Part shown: in pieces, positions 24,195 to 24,259 of the stretch | Numbering within the stretch: position 1 is the stretch's first letter | Layout of the letters: each line of letters begins with the position of its first letter | Source: a virus | IMG/VR virus record: IMGVR_UViG_3300044991_001301 | Strand: one strand, 5' to 3' | DNA length: 64,000 bases | Notes under the pieces: generated by a model | Database searches by the model: none | Told to the model about the DNA's origin: nothing | The model's input: only the letters and a program-made list of their open reading frames with translations | Position numbers and translations under genes: made by a program

Positions 24195-24259
24195 AATACC
24201 GAACGTAGTATGAGCGAAGCGAATACTAGTGAAGGTATTAGATGGCTGAAGGCCATCTA
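24195..24259 (+). other. Tandem hairpins with GA/GA mismatches and GAA loops (GCGAAGC)
   Basis: AATACC-GA-AC-G-TAGTAT-GA-GC-GAA-GC-GA-ATACTA-GT-GAA-GGTATT, followed by TAGATGGC-TGAAG-GCCATCTA. Confidence 0.7.

Follow-up and report, generated by a model that had tools for sequence, protein, structure and literature searches.

The complementary-strand origins of phages G4, St-1 and alpha3, and the ssiA site of RSF1010, contain DNA hairpins in which a C-G pair closes a sheared G..A loop of 3-4 nucleotides (nt) with a free middle base (PMC13037366). Such sites, whether single-stranded or opened by an initiator, serve DnaG or RepB' primases. The early promoters for the virion RNA polymerase of phage N4 are likewise small C-G-closed hairpins with 3-nt G..A loops, stable on one strand only, that extrude from duplex DNA at physiological supercoiling and resist single-stranded DNA-binding protein (SSB; PMC4496689). 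Here we describe two adjoining hairpins with loops of this kind, H1 and H2, on the plus strand of a 64,000-nt stretch of viral DNA (IMG/VR record IMGVR_UViG_3300044991_001301; hereafter the window). The phage is an uncultured T4-core jumbo myovirus that shares 48-54% identity in the portal protein with Atu_ph07, Phosso, XaC1 and PA5oct-type phages. To our knowledge, replication origins have been located in almost none of the giant T4-core phages.

In contrast to the G4-type sites, the H1-H2 module belongs to a double-stranded T4-like phage of 300-500 kb, carries its caps within tandem-G.A modules and is coupled to a large noncoding RNA (ncRNA). The N4 promoters occur as three copies at the genome end, have stems of 5-7 base pairs (bp) and serve a giant virion polymerase, whereas here two abutting hairpins with 6-8-bp stems form a single internal copy. 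By the N4 loop criterion (3 nt, purine-centred) the H2 loops fit, although their stems are 8 bp long.

A different likeness is to oriF and oriG of T4, which consist of a promoter and an A+T-rich unwinding element; the transcript enters this element, and the R-loop leaves the displaced non-template strand open for the gp41/61 primosome (PMC3016281). The T4 origins are ~100 bp long, use a MotA middle promoter and have no structured RNA, no hairpins and no specific sequence in the DNA unwinding element, whereas here the AT-rich tract comes after a folded RNA of 350 nt and before conserved hairpins. The direction also differs, transcription running toward a gp26/51-like gene here and away from genes 25 and 26 at T4 oriF. 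In ColE1 the primer, RNA II, is long and folded and forms a hybrid with the template through its 3' part, while the displaced strand bears a hairpin signal, the downstream primosome assembly site (pas). The logic of that system is the same, but neither RNA II nor pas has any sequence or structural homology with the module.

H1-H2 is real and under selection, and chance is excluded both by shuffling and by conservation. As DNA the plus strand folds with -12.7 kcal/mol (z -4.7) and as RNA with -28.3 kcal/mol (z -5.4), in each case with 0 of 200 dinucleotide shuffles equal to it; the minus strand folds less well (-11.1 kcal/mol as DNA, -20.5 kcal/mol as RNA). H1 is a nested hairpin that reads AATACC-GA-AC-G-TAGTAT-GA-GC-GAA-GC-GA-ATACTA-GT-GAA-GGTATT. 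From the outside inward, it comprises an AATACC/GGTATT stem, a GA/GAA internal loop, 2 bp (AC/GT), a bulged G and a 6-bp stem, TAGTAT/ATACTA, and it is topped by a tandem GA/GA with a GCGAAGC cap. H2 forms a perfect inverted repeat, most often found among relatives as AGATGAAC-GAA-GTTCATCT, and it shares with H1 the T at position 24239.

Relatives were collected as 61 IMG/VR loci retrieved via the baseplate protein and 120 further loci retrieved with a pattern for a conserved helix, and a covariance model of the module, R1, was built. R1 finds one copy per locus in ~160 related IMG/VR loci (106 distinct sequences), and its significant matches remain one per locus over ~1.7 Mb of related loci. 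It matches once in the window (24191-24266, 45.7 bits) and once in a complete relative of 360,683 bp with terminal repeats (66.6 bits). Every true locus of the RNA with enough downstream sequence has one H1-H2 module. In alignment A3 (69 distinct rows), 98.9% of cells are canonical and all 16 pairs show compensatory change; in alignment A4 (46 distinct rows) the figures are 99.1% and 15 of 16, and the pair statistics of both far exceed those of shuffled and slid controls. Compensatory change reaches all 8 stem pairs of H1 and all 8 pairs of H2, and more than 99% of H2 cells are paired. Since the stem bases vary freely while pairing is kept, selection acts on a structure rather than on a sequence recognised in duplex DNA.

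While the stems vary, the head of H1 is invariant. Its conserved core is GA-NN-G(N)NA-NN-GA, with the 5' GA present in 69 of 69 rows, the 3' GA in 67 of 69, and the context always Y-GA-R. The GA/GA mismatches around which the initial annotation had built the element are thus nearly invariant, and the stems covary, in more than 100 relatives. Minimal H1s have the form stem-GA-NN-G(N)NA-NN-GA-stem (for example, AAGAAC-GA-AC-GAA-GT-GA-GTTCTT). Longer ones, the window copy among them, nest extra GA-2bp modules and GCGAAGC-type caps (a nested example is ATTAC-GA-AT-GA-AC-GAA-GT-GA-AT-GA-GTAAT), and the length of H1 ranges from 23 to ~60 nt. The H1-head pattern (stem, GA, 2 bp, GNA or GNNA, 2 bp, GA, stem) has a single match in the 64-kb window and another single match in the complete 360-kb relative, for which Markov-shuffled versions yield 0.15; the bare 11-12-mer turns up elsewhere only as often as controls do. 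A repeated intergenic element of the PeSL or REP kind was rejected, as the module is single-copy per window, per 360-kb genome and per locus.

The module obeys rules unlike those of the adjacent RNA, namely those of stable single-stranded DNA. Among the 106 distinct modules, 72 apex loops of H1 divide into 51 GNA, 17 GNYA, 1 GNRA and 3 others, and 102 apex loops of H2 into 82 GNA, 6 GNYA, 4 GNRA and 10 others, GAA accounting for 67 of the 102. The closing pair is C-G in 90 of 98 cases for H1 and 94 of 102 for H2. The cap is GCGAAGC in the window, and GCGTAGC, GCGATAGC, GCGTTAGC or CCGAAGG-type in relatives. DNA mini-hairpins, d(GCGNAGC)/d(GCGNNAGC), are defined by C-G closure and a loop of 3 or 4 nt that starts with G, ends with A and is free in the middle (PMC13037366), a rule that H1 and H2 both follow. 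The RNA counterparts lack much of this stability, r(GCGAAAGC) melting at 39 C, and C(GNA)G triloops have no special stability in RNA (PMC13037366). At the same loci, the variable hairpin of the ncRNA core behaves differently: GNRA loops (GUGA, GCGA, GCAA, GUAA) make up 46 of ~85, closure is mostly A-U and C-GNA-G loops number 0, whereas GNRA accounts for 5 of ~174 simple loops in H1 and H2. Similarly, G-U cells amount to 0.4-0.9% in H1 and H2, as against 6.2% of 1983 in the core helices and 9.3% in the core variable pairs.

Because the G.A pairs and G..A loops exist on the plus strand only, these features support action of the plus strand. Read on the minus strand, the same invariant GA steps are UC/UC mismatches, and H1 folds weakly there (median -2.8 kcal/mol). 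The suggestion of the initial annotation that the plus strand acts as a DNA-type fold is in keeping with the strand-limited G.A pairs and G..A loops, the loop type and the scarcity of G-U relative to the RNA core. Comparing a conserved hairpin with neighbouring RNA in the same genomes, by loop type and G-U frequency, offers a reusable test of whether such hairpins act as DNA or as RNA.

The hairpins lie inside a 535-nt gap without genes, between two convergent units (Table 1). The ncRNA core begins ~20 nt past the stop codon of the PDDEXK/RusA-like gene. Window positions 23799-24139 retain 77-89% nucleotide identity in loci whose neighbouring protein is only ~53% identical. The core folds into many covarying helices with frequent G-U and with compensatory change in 44 of 80 predicted pairs, and the G-U pattern suggests that it is made from the plus strand. 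No Rfam family, including hammerhead, GOLLD, ROOL and HEARO, matched the window at gathering scores, and a permissive search of 23600-24700 returned only snoRNA-type noise (E 0.9 or worse). Nor were any tRNA or tmRNA found, and in a blastn search none of 50,697 phage records matched the region. Immediately before the RNA there is a sigma-70-like match, TTAACA-18-AAAAAT (23743-23772), which is no better than those in shuffles.

Between the end of the core 3' helix and H1 there are 36-89 nt, and all 82 parsed relatives have an AT-rich spacer here. Family-wide it is 23% GC with an AT skew of +0.27, and 94% of 82 sequences have more A than T. The layout of the T4 origins, an A+T-rich tract after a transcript, is thus found in 82 of 82 relatives, and the spacer is a candidate unwinding element or unstructured RNA linker. 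There is no plus-strand T-run between the RNA core and H1; if the RNA is made from the plus strand, the hairpins are copied into RNA too. In lineages with inserted genes, the insertion falls between the chaperone gene and the hairpins, so the module stays beside the ncRNA and at the convergence point. The setting agrees with the initial annotation, which had placed the hairpins at 24195-24259, with AT-rich flanks and a structured RNA just upstream, where two operons converge beside recombination genes: its sequence matches the window letters exactly, the AT-rich flanks are present, the covariation and plus-strand polarity of the RNA were confirmed, and gp47/gp46-like and PDDEXK/RusA-like genes on the plus strand face a gp26/51-like gene on the minus strand.

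Table 1. Positions in the window of the hairpins, the adjoining RNA and genes, and two terminators.
Feature	Position	Strand	Description or basis
Plus-strand unit	ends at 23766	+	gp55-like sigma factor, gp47/gp46-like nuclease, PDDEXK/RusA-like gene
PDDEXK (RusA-like resolvase) gene	23215-23766	+	Pfam PF24608 (E 1.8e-24), PHROG 244
Structured ncRNA core	23786-24140	+	~350 nt, covarying, always upstream of the module
Spacer between RNA core and H1	24141-24194	+	AT-rich, A-biased
H1, nested hairpin	24195-24239	+	Sequence, fold, covariance model
H2, plain 8-bp hairpin	24239-24259	+	TAGATGGC/GCCATCTA, loop TGAAG
H3-equivalent, weak 5-bp hairpin	24275-24294	+	AATTA/TAATT, conserved loop GATAAATGAA
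gp26/51-like baseplate-hub chaperone gene	24302-25356	-	Pfam T4_baseplate and PHROG baseplate hub matches; taken as 24526-25356 plus a downstream open reading frame ending at 24302
Canonical terminator	36203-36224		AAAGGGAAC-TTCG-GTTCCCTTT and T-run, C(UUCG)G cap; after capsid gene
Canonical terminator	37084-37103		GGCTCTGT-ATAT-ACAGAGCC and long T-run

The C-G-closed GNA and GNYA loops, the scarcity of G-U relative to the RNA core and the absence of T-runs suggest that the acting molecule may be DNA rather than RNA. We lean narrowly toward such a DNA-level signal over an RNA-level 3' module, and tentatively read H1-H2 as a folded single-stranded DNA signal on the plus strand, the non-template strand of the ncRNA unit. 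A role in replication initiation, likeliest as an origin of the R-loop type, is suggested by analogy and is more doubtful. With similar reserve, the locus could represent a new type of origin in giant double-stranded T4-like phages, made up of a pseudoknotted ncRNA, an AT-rich tract and SSB-resistant, self-locking mini-hairpins. Such an origin might roughly be pictured, again speculatively, as a hybrid of ColE1 and T4 oriF that uses the gap between the DNA and RNA stabilities of one sequence.

In an origin of this type, transcription of the ncRNA would enter the spacer, which would open by R-loop formation or negative supercoiling, and the freed plus strand would snap into the two hairpins. 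The C-G-closed G..A loops and sheared tandem G.A pairs would confer unusual DNA stability, SSB resistance and slow re-annealing; the RNA copy would fold weakly, and the complementary strand would be unable to form G.A pairs or G..A loops. The region would be held open and would offer a branched, SSB-free landing site. Its likeliest use would be an RNA-primed leading strand, with entry of helicase and primase on the displaced strand as at T4 oriF and oriG. At the N4 early promoters, small one-strand hairpins do extrude from duplex DNA, C-G closure and the loop G and A are needed, and SSB melts only the opposite strand (PMC4496689). What decides the sites of R-loops, even in T4, has been listed as an open question (PMC3016281). 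The T4 annotation (NC_000866) places oriF (ori uvsY) in the interval from uvsY to gene 25, with gene 26 at a distance of 0.5 kb and gene 51 at 1.2 kb; the module, abutting a gp26/51-like gene, shows a weak positional parallel. If this reading is correct, the module is a concrete, mutable candidate for an origin signal behind a conserved RNA and an AT-rich tract, and DNA mini-hairpin biology would extend from small single-stranded DNA phages, plasmids and N4 promoters to large double-stranded DNA phages.

Several points weigh against a DNA-level origin signal. The nearest-neighbour medians for H1 and H2 as DNA are modest, at -2.5 and -5.3 kcal/mol, from models that hold no mini-hairpin bonus. 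The loops counted come from related sequences and lack phylogenetic independence, stability alone may keep G-U out of short AU-rich stems, and RNA, too, commonly contains tandem G.A pairs. A-rich RNA is no better than average at hybridising with DNA, T4 origins do not need hairpins, and no GNA hairpins were found in T4 oriF (NC_000866). The initial annotation also looked to a GC-skew inflection as a sign of an origin at this site, and none occurs at the module in either the window or the complete relative. The window has its skew minimum near 18 kb, where the genes switch divergently, rather than at 24.2 kb. Along the complete relative, cumulative skew is lowest at ~120-125 kb and highest at ~265 kb, and the module, at 162.7 kb, lies ~40 kb from the minimum. 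As skew in T4-like phages mostly tracks transcription (PMC3016281), this mismatch is weak evidence.

Second in our estimation, and still a serious possibility, is that the module acts in RNA, as the conserved 3' tail of the ncRNA-carrying transcript. On this account H1, with its tandem G.A pairs and GNA cap, would be a hairpin recognised by a protein or through a tertiary contact, and H2 would be a clamp that sets the mature 3' end, or protects it from 3'-5' exonucleases, after processing or after collision of the convergent transcripts. The position of the module favours such a function: it lies on the same strand as the core, always 36-89 nt downstream with no plus-strand T-run between them, and it keeps to the 3' side of the ncRNA, at the convergence point, despite inserted genes. 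The A-richness of the spacer is usual for unpaired RNA, and the RNA fold has the z score of -5.4 given above. Tandem sheared G.A pairs are, moreover, a classic protein- or metal-binding motif of RNA, and an invariant head on variable stems is the pattern of a protein-bound RNA hairpin. The loops, however, are not of the kinds that are stable in RNA, given the rarity of GNRA relative to the core variable hairpin and the ordinary RNA stability of C(GNA)G triloops (PMC13037366), and G-U is nearly absent although the core tolerates 6%. The median RNA stabilities of H1 and H2 (-4.8 and -7.3 kcal/mol) are low for a block to exonucleases, there is no U-tract, and the variation of H1 from 23 to ~60 nt argues against a fixed tertiary contact. 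If the hairpins do act as RNA, they mark the 3' boundary, and probably a protein-binding head, of a new large phage RNA.

An unlikely alternative is a two-way transcription insulator, in which the pair would stop or stabilise both convergent transcripts and pairing would be needed on both strands. H2 would then act on the plus-strand RNA, and the gp26/51 mRNA would depend on the U-rich complement of the spacer together with those of H2 and H1. The module does sit exactly at the convergence point, with H2 abutting the stop codon of the minus-strand gene in lineages that lack H3, and a structure used on both strands would be expected to covary as observed, by strict Watson-Crick pairing nearly free of G-U. 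The A-rich plus-strand spacer would likewise become a U-rich tract after the H1 complement in the minus transcript. Against this, the weakness of H1 on the minus strand and its UC/UC steps indicate that the strongest conservation serves the plus strand only. An intrinsic terminator was taken to be a G+C-rich stable hairpin with an immediately adjoining U/T-rich tract (about 5 or more T in 8 nt). The 69 distinct tails beyond H2 all lack a T-run and start with at most 3 T (typical tails are TTACAAAG and CTTAATGA), and a terminator consensus scan did not flag H1 or H2. Because no copy has a T-run, H1-H2 is not an intrinsic terminator, and a plain or bidirectional terminator was rejected as the main explanation on this ground and for the single copy of the module. 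The real terminators of this phage (Table 1) differ from the single-copy module. Phage transcript terminators and 3' stabilisers of the T4-type C(UUCG)G kind resemble it in placing a hairpin at the end of a unit between convergent genes, but the module has no U-tract, its stems are AU-rich and G.A-mismatched, its loops are GNA rather than UUCG or GNRA, and it is single-copy. A perfect 12-bp inverted repeat, ATTACGGATTGG-TATA-CCAATCCGTAAT, occurs at 20005-20032 of the window, directly after the gp55-like sigma gene, without a T-run.

Still less probable, and proposed by analogy, is a hairpin start signal, that is, an extruded plus-strand promoter or priming site read by a phage enzyme in the style of N4, G4 or RSF1010 ssiA/RepB'. 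The rules for loop and closing pair are the same as in the known sites (PMC13037366, PMC4496689), and the module is single-copy. Unlike the G4-type sites, no cognate primase was detected: in five near-complete relatives neither the DnaG-type domains (PF01807, zinc-ribbon; PF08275, catalytic N) nor Prim-Pol (PF09250) gave a match while controls did, although a T4 gp61-type primase may escape these models. PF00940 (T7/N4-type RNA polymerase) was also silent in these relatives, but its control search was equally silent. The 8-bp stems exceed the 5-7 bp of N4, no start trinucleotide is conserved 3' of H2, and a T4-type phage has no obligatory single-stranded genome stage. T4 primase sites were considered and rejected by inspection, since the GTT and GCT trinucleotides in H2 are not conserved across variants. 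A duplex-DNA inverted repeat for a dimeric protein, or a chance palindrome, is very improbable, for although H2 is a perfect inverted repeat, the invariant GA steps and G..A loops are strand-asymmetric, and shuffles and conservation exclude chance.

Several other classes of structure were considered and rejected. A kink-turn (K-turn or K-loop) lacks its 3-nt bulge here, the 5' strand passing directly from stem to GA and the 3' strand having at most one extra A at the GA (GAA in 11 of 69). By inspection, the CUGANGA core of hammerhead domain 2, the AGUA/GAA strands of loop E/sarcin-ricin and the pentaloop of boxB-like hairpins are all absent. A retron or diversity-generating retroelement was set aside because there is no adjacent reverse transcriptase and the complementary DNA strand would be the wrong one.

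A third hairpin, H3, is optional. Many lineages lack it, and in these H2 abuts the stop codon of the convergent chaperone gene. Where present in relatives (for example, L150-type loci), it has covarying stems of 7-16 bp around an AAATGAA loop, as against 5 bp in the window. H3 lies shortly after H2, and its loop sequence is conserved as (G)ATAAATGAA. In relatives such as L150, L051 and L054 the module is flanked by a direct repeat, ATAGATAACC(C)GTAA, with its upstream copy in the spacer and its downstream copy forming the 5' arm of H3; the upstream copy may pair with the 3' arm of H3 in an alternative enclosing helix.

With the models R1 and R2, neither the module nor the ncRNA was convincingly matched in the cultured relatives Phosso, Atu_ph07 and Paride or in the three IMG/VR loci that are most distant. 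In the cultured Xanthomonas phage XaC1 (OR258281.1), R1 detected a lone H1-like head, AATGAAT-GA-AC-GTA-GT-GA-ATTCATT (E 0.007), at ~209.6 kb on the minus strand (L203 5019-5054). It comes after an AT-rich stretch in which GAATGA words abound, within an unannotated gap of 800 nt next to an endonuclease VII gene and upstream of a small gene. No H2 and no homologue of the ncRNA were detected in XaC1, and we regard this H1-like head as a possible lead, not as a family member. Phosso (Sinorhizobium; L201 4846-6247) and Paride (Pseudomonas; L204 4525-6001) have stretches of 1-1.4 kb without credible genes that run from the baseplate-hub region to a Holliday-junction resolvase gene. Neither stretch is matched by R1 or R2, and that of Phosso adjoins an RNase HI gene.

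Two of the related loci carry an extra plus-strand gene between the chaperone gene and the hairpins. That of L045 (5116-5628) encodes a 170-amino-acid protein that is homing endonuclease-like by eye, and that of L028 (5060-5806) a 248-amino-acid protein without an assigned family; in both, the insertion point is on the gene side of H3/H2. In the window, the reading frame that ends at 24302, downstream in the span of the chaperone gene, is small, conserved and on the minus strand. A perfect 11-bp palindrome, TGAGGACATAT-TTA-ATATGTCCTCA, lies within the gp51-like reading frame (24380-24404), and a word resembling it, GACATATT..AATATC, recurs in coding sequence of relatives.

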